The position numbers and the translations under genes were made by a program. Of a DNA stretch of 34,628 bases, positions 2,588 to 11,257 are shown piece by piece. The DNA comes from a virus (Duplodnaviria; Heunggongvirae; Uroviricota; Caudoviricetes), in IMG/VR virus record IMGVR_UViG_2558860472_000005, positions 1 to 34,628 of that record; one strand, 5' to 3'. The notes beneath the pieces are model-generated. The model made no database searches. It was not told the DNA's origin and saw nothing but the letters and a program-made list of their open reading frames with translations. Position 1 is the first letter of the stretch; each line of letters opens with the position of its first letter.

Positions 2588-2946
2588 TTCTTAGTCTCCG
2601 GTGCTTTCGGCATTACTGCCCAGTGAGTGATATTGACATTTTCAAGGTCCCCGACCTGAAATGTCCGCTGCCATTCTCCGGTTTCTTTTTGCCCCCATGT
2701 GTACCAGAGAGAACGCCAGCCAATCAGCCAGCCTTCTCCACTAGCATCAAATAACAGAACACTTTCATTTGCTGGTGGCAGTTCAGCTGACACTGGTATT
2801 ATTTTGTTTTCCAGTGCCGCACATTTAGCTTCAAGCGCGTTGAATTTACGTACTAGGTACTCAGCATTTGTTTCGTTCACTTTCAGATCTCGCGGTACAC
2901 ATTTCCCGCGAAGAAACCCTTCCATTTCGAAAACATTCATGCGCAT
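2584..2946 (-). CDS. DUF551-like phage protein (120 aa)
   Basis: The C-terminal half (LLFDASGEGWLIGW...ITHWAVMPKAPE) resembles the DUF551 signature (...THWMPLPEPP), which is common near int in enterobacterial prophages. Assignment is from memory of the family. Confidence 0.45.
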   Translation of the reverse strand: MRMNVFEMEGFLRGKCVPRDLKVNETNAEYLVRKFNALEAKCAALENKIIPVSAELPPANESVLLFDASGEGWLIGWRSLWYTWGQKETGEWQRTFQVGDLENVNITHWAVMPKAPETKK

Positions 2947-3473
2947 TTGCGTAACTCCGATAACTCGTTAAAACGTTCCATAAACATCCCGTAGGCCTGG
3001 CCCGGTGCCAGTGGAATCACGTTGAACATCTCTGTTGCCGGGATGCCTTCCAGTACAGGCCAGAAAGAGCCATCATCAAGCCCGAGATCGCGGCGTTCGG
3101 TTGCCAGCATGATGAGATCGGCATATTTCACAGGCGTGCTCATAACCGGGGGTAACCCGTATTTTTCACGGATTACGGCGTCTATTTTTTCTTCCATCCG
3201 TTTATAGTCAGGAAGAAGGCGTTTCAGTGGAGCCGGGATGTCCTGGCAATACGCTTCTGTTGCATCATGCATTAACGCTTCAAAAGCAAATTCCTGCGGT
3301 ACCAGCTGGCTGCAAAGCACCGCATGTTGGGCGACGCTGTAGAAGTGTGAAAGATGTCCTGCAAAGCGACAGATATTTGAAAGGGAAACCGCGATATCGT
3401 TAATAACGATGTCGTCTTTATTTATCCTGTCATAATAAAAATGCTTCCCGGAAAAAGTTTTAATAAATGACAT
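2937..3473 (-). CDS. HD-domain metal-dependent phosphohydrolase (YfbR/5-prime-deoxynucleotidase-like)
   Basis: The spacing of SVAQHAVLCS ... ALMHDATEAY ... D matches the H..HD...D metal-binding motifs of HD-superfamily hydrolases. A start at the ATG at 3473 is preferred (GGAG 8 nt upstream). The ORF track extends to a GTG at 3500. Confidence 0.6.
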   Translation of the reverse strand: MSFIKTFSGKHFYYDRINKDDIVINDIAVSLSNICRFAGHLSHFYSVAQHAVLCSQLVPQEFAFEALMHDATEAYCQDIPAPLKRLLPDYKRMEEKIDAVIREKYGLPPVMSTPVKYADLIMLATERRDLGLDDGSFWPVLEGIPATEMFNVIPLAPGQAYGMFMERFNELSELRKCA

Positions 3474-3559
3474 TTTGTTCTCCACGTATATGCGCTGCAC
3501 CGCGCTGAATTCGGGTAAAAGGAAGCCCTCACCGTCCGGCGATTATTGAGTCAATTACA

Positions 3560-3900
3560 TTTCCATAAATGCCCCCGTAGGGGCGGTTAGTTTCTCCACA
3601 AAACAGAGAAGAACACCTGTGGTGGCAGCCGCCCGGATGGATTGGGTTATGAGCCCGTCGTCCGATGATGCTCTTCTCTGTTTTGTAAAAAGGACGGTAC
3701 CAGCCGGAAGCAAGGGTACAAGCTGGTACCGCCAAGACAACACACAGCATAAAGTTGTGGTGCCGGGTGCCTCCCGGTGCCTGGCGAAGGTTGTACACCA
3801 GACGGGTGGGTATCCACAGAAGGTCGACTGTCAGCCTCAACCTTAACCCGCGTGCGCTGAGCCGCATTCACCACAACGCTAAGGATTCTCTCTGGTTGAA
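3560..3900. other. GC-rich, highly structured non-coding region (candidate leader or ncRNA and left operator region)
   Basis: About 350 nt with no credible ORF; only mutually overlapping ORFs of odd composition on both strands. There is a perfect 15-bp inverted repeat, ACAAAACAGAGAAGA at 3598-3612 and TCTTCTCTGTTTTGT at 3672-3686. A 9-bp stem GGTACCAGC / GCTGGTACC lies at 3696-3730. A 5-bp hairpin GCCCC-GTA-GGGGC lies near 3571. It also contains GGTACA/GGTACC motifs that match the OR operator half-sites. Confidence 0.3.
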
Positions 3901-3957
3901 AATACTTAGCTGTTATGTGCCTGCTTTTAGCCACATCAGGCGAGGTGGACCTGGTTA

Positions 3958-3990
3958 TTCCCCAACAACAAGGATTCGGTATAATCTGGA
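3958..3990 (+). promoter_or_regulatory. Candidate sigma70 promoter of the micropeptide/2TM operon
   Basis: Perfect -10 hexamer TATAAT at 3980-3985 with a weak -35 (TTCCCC). It is flanked by direct repeats CCCAACAACAAGG (3961-3973) and CCCAACAACAGG (3994-4005), which could be a regulator binding site. Confidence 0.3.
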
Positions 3991-4017: not shown

Positions 4018-4101
4018 ATGTACGTAGATAGCAATGAAAAATTTCATGTTCCGGTAAATCAGAGACCAGCACCGATCCCTGAGCCGAAACCTGAAATGTA
4101 A
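4018..4101 (+). CDS. Proline-rich micropeptide 1 (27 aa), MYVDSNEKFHVPVNQRPAPIPEPKPEM
   Basis: Strong SD AGGAAGGA 5 nt upstream of the ATG. The stop lies 10 nt before the start of the 2TM gene. It is paralogous to peptides 2 and 3 through a shared HxPxxxRPxPxPEPKP core. Confidence 0.4.
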   Translation: MYVDSNEKFHVPVNQRPAPIPEPKPEM

Positions 4102-4111
4102 GGGAATAGAG

Positions 4112-4591
4112 ATGACTCGAGACGATCTAGCATTCGATATTCATTATTCTTTCTTTCTTGAGAAAATGAATTACACCCTTTTAAATCGGATAGACAAGAG
4201 CATAACTCTTGTTCTCATTGTCTTGGGCTTTTCTGTTTTTGCGCCATATAGCAATATGTTTATTTTTGGCGCATCTGTAGCTATTTTGTCGGTGCTTCAA
4301 TTGGTATACCAATTTGGGCAGGAAGCTGGCTTATCAAAGGAACAGATGCGACAGTATAAAAGGTTGATTGTTGAGTTTTCCTCCCTTTCTGATGACGAAC
4401 TACGCACTCGGTTTTTAAAGGTTCAAGACGCTGATAGTAATCCATGGAGATCTTTACAAGATGCTGCGTTCAAACGGACCTGTATTGCGCTGGGACGTGT
4501 TGATGAGTCAGAAATATCATTCATGCATAGCGTTATCGCATGGTTTGCTGGAGATTTGCCTCGGTCAAAAAGGTGTAATAATGACAAATAG
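4112..4591 (+). CDS. Small two-TM membrane protein (159 aa) with a cytoplasmic C-terminal domain of about 90 aa. Possible pore/effector-like protein.
   Basis: Two adjacent hydrophobic helices (ITLVLIVLGFSVFAPY and MFIFGASVAILSVLQLVY) followed by a charged helical domain. It is convergent to cI and ends at an intrinsic terminator. The architecture resembles 2TM effector modules of the SLATT type, but this is not verified. Confidence 0.5.
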   Translation: MTRDDLAFDIHYSFFLEKMNYTLLNRIDKSITLVLIVLGFSVFAPYSNMFIFGASVAILSVLQLVYQFGQEAGLSKEQMRQYKRLIVEFSSLSDDELRTRFLKVQDADSNPWRSLQDAAFKRTCIALGRVDESEISFMHSVIAWFAGDLPRSKRCNNDK

Positions 4592-4697
4592 AATTCCCAT
4601 AATCCCTAACCATGTACCTCCAAAGCCCAGACCACCATCACCAAAGTCACACAGGCTTTATGAGTATGAATTAATAATGGATTCTATATTGAGATGA
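4581..4697 (+). CDS. Proline-rich micropeptide 2 (38 aa), MTNRIPIIPNHVPPKPRPPSPKSHRLYEYELIMDSILR
   Basis: SD AAGGTG 6 nt upstream. It overlaps the last 11 nt of the 2TM gene. It shares an H-V-P-P-K-P-R-P-P-S-P motif with peptides 1 and 3. Confidence 0.35.
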   Translation: MTNRIPIIPNHVPPKPRPPSPKSHRLYEYELIMDSILR

Positions 4698-4701
4698 CCA
4701 A

Positions 4702-4791
4702 ATGAATGCATTTATATATACATGGAAAGAGGATCATATACCCTTAAAACCTCGTCCTTCACCGCCAGAACCGAAGCCAAAATCCCGTTAA
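4702..4791 (+). CDS. Proline-rich micropeptide 3 (29 aa), MNAFIYTWKEDHIPLKPRPSPPEPKPKSR
   Basis: Starts 5 nt after the peptide 2 stop. It aligns with peptide 1 over about 17 residues (HIPLKPRPSP-PEPKP versus HVPVNQRPAPIPEPKP). Many codon differences are synonymous (AGA/CGT Arg, CCG/CCC, CCA/CCT, GAG/GAA, AAA/AAG). Confidence 0.4.
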   Translation: MNAFIYTWKEDHIPLKPRPSPPEPKPKSR

Positions 4792-4822
4792 GTGTTGGGG
4801 ATCTCCAGATTGTTAAAGAGCG

Positions 4823-4848
4823 AAGCGTCCTATAGGGCGCTTTTTTGT
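4823..4848 (+). terminator. Intrinsic terminator ending the micropeptide/2TM operon
   Basis: Stem AAGCGTCC with loop TATA and partner GGGCGCTT (one G-U pair), followed by a T-run (TTTTTTGTTG). Confidence 0.6.
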
Positions 4849-4961
4849 TGCTAACGAATCATCCTGGACTTCATATGCCCCAGGCGGCTACTTCGTGGGC
4901 GTCCTGCCTGTTCGTTGTTTCGCTTGGGTACATTATGTATCTCAAAGGTACATTGTCAAGT

Positions 4962-4998: not shown

Positions 4999-5673
4999 TT
5001 AGGCTTTGATTTTGTATCTTCTTGGTTTTCCTGAGAAAATCACTGTACCAATTATAGAGCAATTACCGTTGATCTTAATGTAAGGCTCAGGCCAGTTTGG
5101 GTTTAACGCTTTGAGATAACGCTGTGTCCCATCTTCTATCAACCTTTTGAAGGTGGTTTCACCTGTATCGTGCATCAATGCAATAACGTCGTCACCGTGG
5201 CAGGCAGGTACTTCAGGATCGACAAAAATCATGTCTCCCGGGCGGTACTCATCAATCATTGAATCACCTATCACCCGCAAGATATAAGTCATTTCCCCAC
5301 AGGGTACAGGGCAGGGATACGTTTCTGCTGTGCTCAAATCAACCTCAGAATATCCAACTTCTTTCCATGCTCCGGCCTGTACCCATGATATGACAGGGAC
5401 TAATGTGATTTGTTTATTAGTGATTGAAACATCAGGTTTTTTTGTGATGTTCGTTGTCTGGTGTTCTTGATCGAGCCATCCGACAGGCAGGTCGAAACAT
5501 CTTTCGATGTGTCGTGCCATGCTGTCACCGATATTTTTAGTAGCACCATCTCCCATAAACCTGCTGGTCTGGGTTGGCTCGCGATCAATCATAGTGGCAA
5601 AGGAAGAATTCCCGCCAACACCATCTCTCAGTTTTCTGGCGTTAGACCGCCGGATGTCATGGATTGTTTTCAT
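4999..5673 (-). CDS. cI: CI-like prophage repressor with an N-terminal HTH and a C-terminal S24 (LexA-like) autopeptidase domain
   Basis: The 224-aa protein has a C-terminal GDSM...K region (RVIGDSMIDEYRPGDMIFVD ... TFKRL) typical of S24 self-cleaving repressors. It is divergent from a Cro-like gene across an operator-rich intergenic region. Its length matches e14 CohE (from memory). Confidence 0.85.
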   Translation of the reverse strand: MKTIHDIRRSNARKLRDGVGGNSSFATMIDREPTQTSRFMGDGATKNIGDSMARHIERCFDLPVGWLDQEHQTTNITKKPDVSITNKQITLVPVISWVQAGAWKEVGYSEVDLSTAETYPCPVPCGEMTYILRVIGDSMIDEYRPGDMIFVDPEVPACHGDDVIALMHDTGETTFKRLIEDGTQRYLKALNPNWPEPYIKINGNCSIIGTVIFSGKPRRYKIKA

Positions 5674-5688
5674 AACGAAATTAAAACC

Positions 5689-5758
5689 CTTGTACCGTTA
5701 AGGTACAAGTATCTTGAAGGTTCATTTTAATCATGTAATATGTACACCGGAGGTACAT
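5689..5758. promoter_or_regulatory. Immunity-region operators and divergent promoters (PRM/PR-like)
   Basis: Two palindromes are built from the same half-site: CTTGTACCgttaaGGTACAAG (5689-5709) and aTGTACAccggagGTACAt (5740-5758). A rightward promoter lies between them, with -35 TTGAAG (5714-5719), a 16-bp spacer and -10 TAATAT. Confidence 0.5.
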
Positions 5759-10868: not shown

Positions 10869-10885
10869 TTTTGTGGAGAAAGTTG

Positions 10886-11257
10886 ATGCGTGATATTCAA
10901 ATGGTTCTTGAACGTTGGGGTGCATGGGTGGCAAATAATCACGAGGATGTCACTTGGTCGTCTATTGCTGCAGGATTTAAAGGACTAATCCCTTCAAAAG
11001 TAAAATCCCGCCCGCAATGTTGTGACGATGACGCGATGATCATTTGTGGGTGTATGGCTCGCCTGAAAAAGAACAACAGCGATTTGCACGATTTATTAGT
11101 GGATTACTATGTAGGAGGTATGACATTTATGGCGCTTGCCCGTAAACATGGGCGTTCTGATTGCTGGGTTGGGCGTTTATTGCAAAAAGCGGAAGGAGTA
11201 GTTGATGGTATGTTGATAATGCTAGATATTGAATTGGAAATGGAACGTAAAATTTAG
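10886..11257 (+). CDS. Late-gene antiterminator Q (QuuD-type, PF06530-like)
   Basis: [14 protein letters not shown]...[32 protein letters not shown] closely matches my memory of the DLP12 QuuD antiterminator. GGAG lies upstream of the ATG at 10886. Confidence 0.7.

Follow-up and report, generated by a model that had tools for sequence, protein, structure and literature searches.

Position and strand of the element

The window, meaning the whole 34,628-nucleotide stretch of DNA that was analysed, carries between positions 3530 and 3900 a non-coding, highly folded RNA leader that heads the leftward early operon of the prophage. Its sense strand is the minus strand, the same as that of the yfdR–xis–int early-left operon: the U run of the terminator sits on the minus strand only, read on the plus strand, 11 G-U pairs of the minus-strand helices would turn into A-C mismatches, and the U-G pair that closes helix H1 is kept in 54 of the 55 sequences compared. 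The features of the region, 5′ to 3′ on the minus strand, are as follows.

4926–4959, minus strand: probable pL with OL, comprising a −35 TTGACA, a −10 CATAAT and the operator ATGTACC-N5-ATACAT between them
4854–4915, minus strand: conserved 62-nt structured RNA directly downstream of pL, a separate element
3912–3948, minus strand: box A, CCACCTCGCCTGATGTGGCTAAAAGCAGGCACATAAC, a conserved upstream box adjoining the first helix of the RNA
3878–3910, minus strand: hairpin P0, GCUAAGUAUUUUC/GAGAAUCCUUAGC, directly 5′ of the core, from an inverted repeat and the MFE fold
3754–3877, minus strand: STnc100/PasD-type core of 124 nt, from the match to Rfam RF02076, covariation and alignment with PasD1
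Parts of the core, minus strand: P1 (3877–3869 with 3762–3754), H1 (3865–3850), a variable H2 region, H3 (3803–3779) and the invariant hairpin H4 (3777–3763)
3838–3844, minus strand: pseudoknot strand X, AAGGUUG, pairing with Y in the H3 loop
3787–3793, minus strand: pseudoknot strand Y, CAACCUU, inside the H3 loop
3734–3751, minus strand: single-stranded linker UAUGCUGUGUGUUGUCUU, unpaired in the MFE and centroid folds, a candidate base-pairing seed
3685–3733, minus strand: intrinsic terminator C, a 13-bp stem (3733–3693) followed by CUUUUUAC, with a U5 run at 3691–3687
3592–3692, minus strand: hairpin D, whose stem of about 26 bp takes in the U tract of the terminator and whose 50-nt apical region is structured
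3586–3599, minus strand: GUGGAGAAACUAAC box, which recurs after the core in several lineages
3571–3584, minus strand: hairpin E, GCCCC-UAC-GGGGGC, just upstream of the translation start region of the first downstream gene

An earlier, sequence-only reading had described this stretch as GC-rich and highly structured, and both properties are borne out. The G+C content is 0.52–0.58 in the stretch against 0.39–0.49 in the flanks, and the minus strand folds at −90.5 kcal/mol over 3912–3684 (z = −3.3) and at −58.2 kcal/mol over 3700–3560 (z = −5.6), with none of 200 shuffles as good in either case. The repeats listed in that reading were recovered in slightly altered form: its perfect 15-mer sits inside a longer inverted repeat with 18-nt arms (3598–3615 and 3669–3686, 94% complementary, 53 nt apart), its 9-bp stem is in fact a perfect 10-bp inverted repeat (3695–3704 with 3722–3731), and its GCCCC-GTA-GGGGC hairpin is found at 3570–3585. 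A perfect 9-bp long-range repeat, 3754–3762 with 3869–3877, had been missed.

A divergent relative of STnc100 and PasD

STnc100 and PasD, two prophage small RNAs, are the known relatives of this element, which has diverged from them and had gone unannotated; the earlier guess at a structured RNA or "prophage sRNA" was near the mark. The Rfam and covariation check that had been proposed, once run, yielded covarying helices and a minus-strand match to the full STnc100 model (RF02076, model positions 1–206; 39.6 bits, E = 5.6e-7). The match surfaced only in the E-value mode of the search; at gathering thresholds Rfam gave no match anywhere in the window, and the score of the core falls short of the curated gathering score of 47 bits. 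Sub-threshold matches to the same family are found at the same place in SfV (39.5 bits), phiES15 (40.6 bits) and ST64B (35.1 bits).

The invariant 21-mer ACCGGGAGGCACCCGGCACCA and the UGGUGAAU motif are common to the window, the canonical copies and PasD1, and the 21-mer of the window is identical to more than 180 copies from many genera. In the core, P1 carries the conserved UGGUGAAU at its junction, CACCA comes after the invariant hairpin CCGGGAGGCACCCGG, and H1 has STnc100-type geometry, with 5–6 bp, a bulged A and a U-N-N-G-C loop. Three H1 pairs are switched from CG to GC between the canonical and leader subfamilies. The leader copies form a distinct subfamily in which the H1 helix has been rebuilt by compensatory changes, and the element is best read as a leader-embedded new variant of a known RNA family, with a function that we infer.

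Across 55 sequences, the covariation score (RNAalifold with pair counts) was 0.209, compared with 0.066 in shuffles, and none of 500 shuffles reached it. P1 and H1 are supported by covariation, P1 at its outer pairs, while in H1 every cell of the helix is paired throughout this comparison. Covariation also supports an H-type pseudoknot, X:Y, which does not appear in the Rfam consensus structure line and is found in PasD1 as well. The X:Y duplex of the window has an energy of −8.5 kcal/mol. The 123 unique cores yield 70 different complementary X:Y helices of 5 bp or more, and cognate pairs are more stable than non-cognate ones (permutation p ≤ 2e-4). Compensatory versions of X/Y include AAGGCUG/CAGCCUU in phiES15 and, in three further loci, UGGUUAG/CUAACCA (L103), UGGUUAA/UUAACCA (L036) and GACUGACA/UGUCAGUC (L215). 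Since a per-sequence shuffle test is weak here (p ≤ 0.05 in 35% of sequences), it is the ensemble, with its many different complementary pairs, that carries the case for a pseudoknot. For mutational work, concrete targets are offered by the invariant hairpin and by the covarying pseudoknot.

Elements flanking the core

Box A hardly varies between the window, SfV, K-12 e14, Cronobacter phiES15 and Lelliottia L135, whereas the flanks differ. It was not called as a promoter in a sigma-70 scan and may be either a weak promoter or part of the RNA. A sigma-54 promoter at box A was considered and rejected: in the window the GG-GC spacing is suitable, but SfV and e14 have a 1-nt insertion that disrupts it. 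Box A may resemble a sigma-32 or a weak sigma-70 promoter. At the position of P0, ST64B, phiES15, L135, L136 and L142 carry a hairpin of different sequence or an extension of P1 of about 20 bp. A sigma-70-like promoter adjoins P1 in 1 of 88 unique leader-type copies, compared with 38 of 98 canonical copies; the leader subfamily has no recognisable promoter of its own, unlike canonical STnc100/PasD. Lacking such a promoter and, in some genera, a terminator, it is therefore a leader element. As for the features of a stand-alone gene, the window has a terminator after the linker, and no promoter was found at P1.

On the 3′ side, the conserved single-stranded stretch of the linker is UGCUGUGUGU in the window, and UUGCUGUGU(G/U)U is kept directly upstream of four unrelated terminators, those of the E. 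coli type, ST64B, phiES15 and L215. A search of the window for a target of this candidate seed matched only the seed itself. The hairpin of terminator C folds at −23 kcal/mol and contains the perfect 10-bp inverted repeat; ST64B, phiES15 and L215 carry different terminators at its position. A terminator lies within 130 nt in 75 of the 88 unique leader-type copies, and in several genera a core without a terminator lies 25–70 nt upstream of an SD-AUG.

Of 5426 complete E. coli genomes, 2766 carry hairpin D, which in transcripts that read through is a candidate site for RNase III-type processing. In ST64B its stem has undergone a compensatory G>A / C>U change, and its apical hairpin varies between CUGCCACCGCAG, CUGUGGCCACAG and GCUGUUACAGC. 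Independent compensatory changes in D are few, and covariation support is thin because the diversity of this module is low, with three types in the collected loci. The GUGGAGAAACUAAC box recurs together with C and D, and also without them in Buttiauxella (L180, L181) and Pantoea (L151, L159, L223). The stems of hairpin E vary by lineage (CGACC/GGUCG, GGCGG/CCGCC, UGGCAG/CUGCCA), and the hairpin is always present.

The left promoter and its proximal RNA

Directly after the terminator of the repressor gene (4987–4968), a promoter scan located TTGACA-16-CATAAT at 4959–4932, with 11 of 12 matches. Perfect copies of the operator TGTAC-N7-GTACA occur only at OR (5691–5707 and 5741–5757), with a one-mismatch copy at pL (4936–4952); counted window-wide with up to two mismatches, its matches are not in excess (13, compared with 10.1 in shuffles). 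The sequence-only reading had placed the left operator and pL within 3530–3900. That repressor-binding DNA should make up this stretch can be virtually dismissed: GTAC-containing motifs are indeed present at 3695–3731, but the operator pattern has no match in 3530–3900, the operator-bearing promoter lies 1 kb away at 4959–4932, and the core is kept among phages with different repressors (ST64B, phiES15, L090). The supposed GGTAC operator half-sites build both arms of the intrinsic terminator hairpin.

The corrected position of pL/OL reveals a second, uncatalogued RNA after pL that is common to many temperate phages. Conservation of this 62-nt RNA (4915–4854) behind the repressor gene extends to 51 phage records of 11 genera. 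It shows compensatory changes in 10 of 14 pairs (RNAalifold consensus of 8 sequences) and has no match in Rfam. It occupies the position that putL holds in HK022; a search for homology to putL found only the short common words ACGAAC and CAGGAUGA. If the phage uses an RNA antitermination signal, this RNA is a better candidate for it than the core. In keeping with the earlier remark that no N-like gene is evident, Pfam scans gave only a Q-type antiterminator, at 10871–11257.

Distribution and genomic context

In SfV, ST64B, phiES15, mEp460, Kati and PhiR29_2 the element is always flanked by the repressor/pL on one side and the first early-left gene on the other, in one constant orientation. The same position and orientation are seen in K-12 e14 and in the loci L090, L180 and L181, and SfII and SfIV also have the element in this interval. 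It is absent from K-12 CPS-53, which carries yfdP/Q/R. The core with hairpin P0 is present in 1876 of 5426 complete E. coli genomes (about 35%). Annotation pipelines miss the element or call it a hypothetical protein, and the K-12 e14 copy, on the minus strand of NC_000913.3 at 1201069–1201500, is annotated as the gene ymfH.

Few prophage sRNAs of pathogenic E. coli are as abundant as the STnc100/PasD RNAs. The present locus shows that their fold also occurs as a promoter-less leader before an early-left operon (xis/int and others), a form found in phages of the SfV, ST64B, phiES15 and e14 types. The stand-alone and leader classes suggest how phage sRNA genes may arise from operon leaders or become them.

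Proposed mechanism

The account that we consider probable is a minus-strand structured leader of the yfdR ... xis, int operon, built around a pseudoknotted STnc100/PasD core, that would work by release of a transcript. The element would be made only when leftward transcription from pL (4959–4926) is derepressed, and pL transcripts would run antisense through a plus-strand moron (4018–4843) before reaching it. A fraction of them would end at terminator C, at the U run 3691–3687, and so release an RNA with a folded body, single-stranded UGCUGUGUGU and a hairpin-plus-U tail. This predicted anatomy is that of an Hfq-dependent base-pairing sRNA, like the relatives PasD and EcOnc27. Terminator C would double as a barrier before yfdR, xis and int, and polymerases reading through it would make the 26-bp hairpin D, a likely RNase III-type site, and hairpin E before the first gene. 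Read-through might occur on induction, since one study places ymfH-xisE-intE of K-12 e14 in an SOS response cluster with ymfJ and ymfL (PMC2634741) and another assigns it to the YmfT iModulon (PMC12132413).

The homology, strand, helices, pseudoknot, terminator, conserved position and lack of coding are established by the comparisons above; the source of transcription, the release of an sRNA, Hfq dependence, processing at D and any partner of the invariant core are proposals. Several points bear on this account. Synthesis from pL is uncertain because the element lies about 1 kb from the promoter, beyond a convergent moron, and conserved box A (3948–3912) could be an unrecognised promoter, which counts against the pL-driven model. 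In the lineages that have no terminator, the sRNA-release step does not apply as stated. A base-pairing sRNA scaffold would need neither an H4 of such extreme invariance nor so elaborate a pseudoknotted junction, and this hints at a further function of the core, for example with a protein or ligand partner.

Alternative explanations

Less likely, though a serious alternative, is an autonomous sRNA gene, in which box A would be a promoter (possibly for an alternative sigma factor) for an sRNA of about 220 nt that is made in the lysogen independently of pL and ends at C. Box A is almost invariant and always adjoins the first helix in E. coli, Cronobacter and Lelliottia phages, and it is kept although the upstream genes of those phages differ; canonical members are driven by promoters of their own and are plentiful in cells that have not been induced (PMC8550237), and the convergent moron would hinder pL transcripts. 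No sigma-70-like promoter was detected, however, the best hexamers (CTGATG-16-CATAAC) being poor, and many lineages lack a terminator. The core is kept without box A in ST64B, L090, L180 and L181, and in L090 it directly follows a pL-like TTGACA-18-TACATT promoter beside the repressor gene. We regard as somewhat more doubtful still a conditional attenuator, in which the core would sense a conserved host protein, RNA polymerase or a metabolite and gate terminator C or a translation start. An aptamer-like build speaks for it, with a closing P1, a multi-helix junction, a pseudoknot and a 21-nt segment invariant across many genera, as do the position in a 5′ leader without its own promoter, followed by a terminator or by an SD-AUG 25–70 nt later, and a GUGGAGAA box with a likeness to the 5′ strand of P1, whose place opposite the 3′ strand it could take. 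On inspection, however, no consistent mutually exclusive pairing of the core with the four terminator types was found, and the alternative GUGGAGAA/CACCACAA helix shows no covariation; the downstream genes are heterogeneous, and the canonical relatives are stand-alone, efficiently terminated sRNAs, some of them in tandem arrays. For the E. coli type, a plausible antiterminator helix can be drawn between terminator C and the core; it is not reproduced in ST64B, and the idea was set aside as unsupported. Were an attenuator to operate, it would be a riboswitch-like checkpoint on prophage commitment in about one-third of E. coli genomes, ymfH included, through which the state of the cell would gate xis/int and kil-type early-left genes.

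The sequence-only reading had proposed an antitermination element such as the HK022 put RNAs, in which the RNA would bind polymerase in cis and confer resistance to terminators across the early-left operon. In favour of this, the element heads a long operon whose terminators lie further on, a conserved host partner (RNA polymerase, for example) would suit an element that does not vary among phages with differing regulators, and Pfam scans found no N-like gene. We nevertheless judge this explanation improbable, as its size and fold (a 124-nt, P1-closed, pseudoknotted core), the roughly 1 kb that separates it from pL, and the behaviour of the related PasD and STnc100, discrete sRNAs that terminate efficiently right after the core, all disagree with it; there is no sequence similarity to putL, and a different conserved RNA lies in the putL position. 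A protein-coding gene, the YmfH-like "hypothetical protein" of annotation pipelines, is scarcely credible. A 112-aa ORF is open on the minus strand at 3867–3529, PGAP places a frameshifted hypothetical protein here, the K-12 copy is annotated ymfH, and many E. coli copies keep the frame open into yfdP, over 226 aa. From the same AUG, which lies in H1, the ORF nevertheless spans anything from 7 to 226 aa across lineages and ends after 7–9 codons in ST64B; close relatives differ by one-nucleotide indels and by a 20-nt terminator insertion, and the substitutions are compensatory within RNA helices. Pfam and PHROG searches gave no family for the ORF that starts in H1, in line with the earlier view that none of the overlapping ORFs on the two strands, of which five cover the stretch, is a credible coding frame.

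Comparison with known systems

The closest known system is STnc100 (RF02076; EcOnc27, or sRNA103, downstream of stx2B), reported as an Hfq-binding sRNA (PMC12711010). The element shares with it P1 with UGGUGAAU, H1, H3 with the pseudoknot, the identical 21-nt H4 segment, a linker followed by an intrinsic terminator, and carriage by prophages. It differs in its sub-threshold score (39.6 against 47), in three inverted H1 pairs, in its linker sequence and in having no promoter at P1, and it sits in the early-left leader, whereas STnc100 lies in the late region downstream of Q/stx. PasD1 and PasD2 (EcOnc13, EPEC E2348/69) belong to the same superfamily (bioRxiv 10.64898/2026.05.13.724894) and likewise have P1, H1, H3 and the pseudoknot; their proposed seed, too, lies in the linker that leads into the terminator. 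Both are sRNAs of about 172 nt, stabilised by Hfq, and each ends at its terminator (PMC8550237); expression and Hfq association have been assayed in such relatives of the element (PMC8550237, PMC5331693, PMC12711010). In contrast to the window element, the H4 of PasD is degenerate, its genes lie near Q and the lysis genes and are expressed in uninduced cells, and its seed is CUUGUGAG where the window linker has UGCUGUGUGU.

That a phage leader cut short by a terminator can act as an sRNA has a precedent in StxS, from the pR′ leader of Stx phages: a promoter-proximal terminator gates the genes and releases a regulatory sRNA (PMC7547250), as we infer for the present locus. The sequence and fold of StxS are unrelated, its operon is a late one and its promoter is constitutive. 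The HK022 putL and putR elements are likewise cis-encoded structured RNAs that head an early operon upstream of terminators, and a put RNA has about 74 nt, with two adjacent stem-loops and a triplex, and starts at +1 of pL (PMC9378689). The window core, in contrast, has 124 nt, a P1-closed junction and a pseudoknot, lies far from pL and is without sequence similarity to put.

In lambda, the terminator tL1 lies early in the leftward operon and must be overcome for expression of xis and int, and the N leader and sib carry RNase III sites in hairpins. Terminator C is placed early in the leftward operon like tL1, and hairpin D resembles the N leader and sib as a long perfect hairpin in a leader, at which cleavage is putative. 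Unlike lambda, the prophage has no N gene and no lambda-type boxB. A boxA-like sequence, CGCTCTTTAACAA, lies at 4822–4810, outside the 3530–3900 stretch.

Prophage setting and non-coding character of the region

An SfV/e14-type lambdoid prophage of E. coli makes up the window, and in it the region 3530-3900 lies between yfdR and a plus-strand moron.

Genes around the region
920-2104, minus: int, early-left operon
minus: xis-like small genes and a DUF551 gene, early-left operon
2937-3476, minus: yfdR-type 5'-deoxynucleotidase, early-left operon
4018-4843, plus: moron between the early-left genes and the repressor gene, with its own TATAAT box (about 3981-3986) and terminator (4822-4843)
4999-5673, minus: S24 LexA-like repressor
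rightward of the repressor gene, plus: Cro-like, CII-like, replication and Q genes (Q, 10871-11257)

By inverted-repeat search, we recovered all of the repeats described in the sequence-only reading, with arms at 3598-3615 / 3669-3686 (18 nt, 94% complementary) and 3695-3704 / 3722-3731 (10 bp, perfect) and a small GC hairpin at 3571-3584, together with a long-range 9-bp pair that it had missed (3754-3762 / 3869-3877). The overlapping ORFs on both strands and the elevated G+C were likewise found as described. Minus-strand folding energies fell below those of dinucleotide shuffles at 3912-3684 (z = -3.3) and 3700-3560 (z = -5.6).

The region had also been held to be non-coding, and our data agree. 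An AUG within H1, a helix of the structured RNA described below, opens the 112-aa ORF; among homologues, the ORF from this AUG spans 7 to 226 codons, and 1-nt indels and a 20-nt terminator insertion separate close relatives. Pfam gave no match for any local ORF, and PHROG none for the 112-aa ORF. A protein gene here is scarcely credible. PGAP labels the site 'frameshifted hypothetical protein'. In K-12 e14, a copy of core, terminator and hairpin D with 96.6% identity is overlapped by the gene ymfH (locus L257 5070-5381 = NC_000913.3 1201069-1201380), which therefore probably does not encode a protein. Hairpin H4, otherwise invariant, is damaged in this e14 copy, where it lacks 1 nt and carries a G>A substitution.

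A leader-embedded relative of STnc100 and PasD

Parts of the leader element (all on the minus strand)
3948-3912: box A
3910-3878: hairpin P0
3877-3754: core
3751-3734: linker UAUGCUGUGUGUUGUCUU
3733-3693: terminator C, followed by CUUUUUAC
3692-3592: hairpin D, with the U tract of the terminator inside its stem
3599-3586: GUGGAGAAACUAAC box
3584-3571: hairpin E
3476: yfdR start codon

At curated thresholds, Rfam gave no match for the element. In E-value mode, the single match was RF02076 (STnc100), full-length on the minus strand at 3907-3684, with 39.6 bits and E = 5.6e-7, below the gathering score of 47; the equivalent sites of SfV, phiES15 and ST64B give the same sub-threshold match. STnc100 is a family of prophage sRNAs present in multiple copies; EcOnc27/sRNA103, an Hfq-binding sRNA, overlaps a copy that lies 75 nt downstream of stx2B, and one copy in EDL933 has been confirmed by Northern blot (PMC12370729, PMC12711010, PMC5331693). 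A 2026 preprint ties the family to the EPEC sRNAs PasD1 and PasD2 (10.64898/2026.05.13.724894).

We aligned the element with PasD1 from E2348/69 and with canonical STnc100 copies from many Enterobacterales genomes. The alignments revealed a shared plan comprising, from 5' to 3', the 5' strand of closing helix P1 ((G/C)(A/U)UGGUG), a junction AAU, H1, a variable region, H3, the invariant ACCGGGAGGCACCCGG hairpin H4, the P1 3' strand (CACCA(C/U)), a linker and a terminator. The element adds to the known STnc100/PasD family a new variant that is embedded in a leader, and the earlier suggestion of a prophage sRNA fits this Rfam match and these alignments. H1 reads GCGGC-UCAGC-GC-A-CGC in the window's subfamily and CCCCC-UNNGC-GG-A-GGG in canonical copies, with three pairs inverted and the geometry unchanged, which probably explains much of the Rfam score shortfall.

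The mapped 5' end of PasD1 falls at GCAUGGUG, and -35/-10 hexamers lie just upstream in 38 of 98 canonical copies; positions 1-30 or so of the RF02076 model therefore probably describe promoter DNA, not RNA. The 21-mer ACCGGGAGGCACCCGGCACCA occurs at 120 loci at least in species-representative genomes. Superficieibacter and Enterobacter genomes carry canonical copies in tandem, two or three units to an array at intervals of about 220-270 nt (L154 6323-7018; L165 2787-3238; L191 1903-2346; L150 3418-3847), and at four other loci (L144, L174, L182, L195) such copies adjoin isrI or tRNA genes.

Core structure, pseudoknot and strand

From 55 non-redundant cores, RNAalifold recovered P1, H1 and H4, and pair counting found 93% of cells paired. 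The covariation score was 0.209, against 0.066 in shuffles; none of 500 shuffles reached it, and all slid controls were lower. An extra helix, missing from the printed RF02076 consensus structure line, joins the segment right after H1 (X) to the H3 loop (Y) and so creates a pseudoknot of the H type. The window's strands are AAGGUUG (3844-3838) and CAACCUU (3793-3787), which pair at -8.5 kcal/mol. The 123 unique cores contain 70 distinct X:Y helices with at least 5 complementary bp, and their H3 stems take 87 different forms; cognate X/Y pairs are more stable than non-cognate ones (permutation p <= 2e-4). Close relatives show paired changes (AAGGUUG/CAACCUU versus AAGGCUG/CAGCCUU; UGGUUAG/CUAACCA versus UGGUUAA/UUAACCA), and PasD1 has the pseudoknot as AUGAUC/GAUCAU.

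The minus strand is fixed by the U run of the terminator, by 11 G-U pairs that would become A-C mismatches on the other strand, and by the H1 closing pair, which is U-G in 54 of 55 sequences.

The box UUGUGGAGAAAC after hairpin D (3586-3599, minus) is almost identical to the P1 5' strand plus junction, UUGUGGUGAAUG (3866-3877). This box could pair with the P1 3' strand CACCACAA; it may be what is left of a second tandem copy, or else serve as an alternative pairing partner.

Position, spread and leader status

The repressor gene flanks the element on one side and the first early-left gene on the other, all three oriented alike. This placement recurs in SfV, SfII, SfIV, ST64B, phiES15 and mEp460, in Kati and PhiR29_2, which are viable phages, in K-12 e14 and in many viral contigs; at some loci, a small ORF or opposite-strand moron is interposed. 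The element is widespread, with core plus P0 in 1876 and hairpin D in 2766 of 5426 complete E. coli genomes. It is currently either unannotated or mis-annotated as protein.

Canonical STnc100/PasD copies are free-standing genes, with a sigma-70-like promoter abutting P1 in 38 of 98, whereas only 1 of 88 unique leader-type copies has one; that exception (L090) adjoins the repressor gene, and its promoter resembles pL itself. Prophages of Buttiauxella, Lelliottia, Pseudescherichia (MAG) and Scandinavium carry the core without terminator, sometimes with P1 lengthened to about 20 bp, and an SD-AUG follows 25-70 nt downstream. Pantoea copies also lack a terminator and have about 100 nt of further hairpins before the next AUG. 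Because promoters are nearly absent and terminator-less cores stand upstream of an SD-AUG, we place the window's subfamily among leader elements rather than among free-standing genes.

After the core, the E. coli, Salmonella, Cronobacter and L215 lineages carry four unrelated terminator sequences, with UUGCUGUGU(G/U)U conserved directly ahead of all four. This pattern points to selection for termination and for a single-stranded UUGCUGUGU(G/U)U stretch. The linker-plus-terminator 3' anatomy matches that of Hfq-type sRNAs, and PasD has a proposed seed at the matching position, in the linker before its terminator (PMC8550237).

In one viral contig (L110), an apparent complete tRNA gene (by eye), ending ...GGTTCGATTCCATTACTCTCCGCCA, replaces the terminator about 130 nt downstream of the core. 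At L103 and L036, the gene after the core encodes a DnaB-type helicase, not yfdP/Q/R.

The probable pL promoter and a second structured RNA

A minus-strand TTGACA-16-CATAAT promoter (4959-4932) directly follows the repressor terminator (4987-4968) and carries an operator motif between its hexamers. TGTAC-N7-GTACA occurs as two perfect copies in OR and as a one-mismatch copy at 4936-4952; a pattern search found none in 3530-3900. The promoter with its operator (4926-4959) is probably pL, so the left operator/pL previously assigned to 3530-3900 is misplaced, and the chance of an operator region there is virtually nil.

Just downstream lies a 62-nt structured RNA (4915-4854, minus) with no Rfam family. 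Conserved copies follow the repressor gene in 51 phage records (11 genera); the hosts include Escherichia, Shigella, Salmonella, Citrobacter, Klebsiella, Yersinia, Pectobacterium and Aeromonas, and a T5-like Providencia phage is also among the records. An RNAalifold consensus of eight sequences showed compensatory changes in 10 of 14 pairs. It occupies the position of HK022 putL, without recognisable homology, and is a candidate nut/put-type antitermination element.

Proposed function of the leader element

In K-12, ymfH-xisE-intE is assigned to an SOS response cluster with other e14 early genes and to the YmfT iModulon (PMC2634741, PMC12132413); transcription therefore does cross the element there on induction, although this e14 copy has a damaged H4. 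The analysis establishes what the element is homologous to, its strand, helices and terminator, where it lies and that it does not code. Beyond this, we infer, as the best reading and with somewhat better than even confidence, a leader that yields a terminated sRNA. On induction, leftward transcripts would traverse the leader, and a fraction would stop at terminator C, releasing a folded sRNA in which a UGCUGUGUGU stretch is exposed and which ends in a U tail. Terminator C would also shield yfdR, xis and int against weak or stray transcription. Read-through RNA would form hairpin D, whose 26 bp would suffice for RNase III, and, before the first gene, hairpin E. The same logic has been shown for StxS in a late operon (PMC7547250).

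An autonomous sRNA gene driven by box A would resemble the canonical copies but sits poorly with the near-absence of promoters in the subfamily, and we consider it unlikely. Less likely still is a conditional attenuator whose invariant core senses a factor; its case is that the invariance of the 21-mer across genera and the pseudoknotted junction seem to exceed the needs of a base-pairing scaffold, the main point that the terminated-sRNA leader leaves without explanation. The put-like antiterminator proposed before is most improbable, as the 62-nt RNA, not the leader element, holds the putL position; if early antitermination uses an RNA signal here, the 62-nt RNA is the better candidate. Of the original interpretation, the non-coding, prophage sRNA-like part thus stands, and the OL/pL and put parts fall away.

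The moron and neighbouring elements

The moron sits between pL and the early-left leader as an insertion that runs the other way. Its coding content is a 27-aa peptide, a 159-aa protein (phrog_6315, without a Pfam match) and perhaps a further small ORF; hydrophobic stretches in the 159-aa protein suggest, by eye, possible membrane segments. Buttiauxella prophage L162 has a homologue of this protein at the same place and PhiR29_2 a different opposite-strand gene. This position has the look of a hot spot for moron insertion.

Downstream of the 62-nt RNA, the leftward transcript carries a boxA-like CGCTCTTTAACAA (4822-4810, minus) after the hairpin at 4822-4843, the moron terminator, matching at 4843-4810 the rrn-type order of hairpin, then boxA. 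In Providencia phage PR1, CGCTCTTTAAAAA comes right after the copy of the pL-proximal RNA.

Rfam found no C4 antisense RNA or isrK in the window; in SfV, ST64B and mEp460, both score above threshold inside an annotated antirepressor/regulator gene, right of the immunity region (L002 226-414; L003 409-597; L005 324-512).
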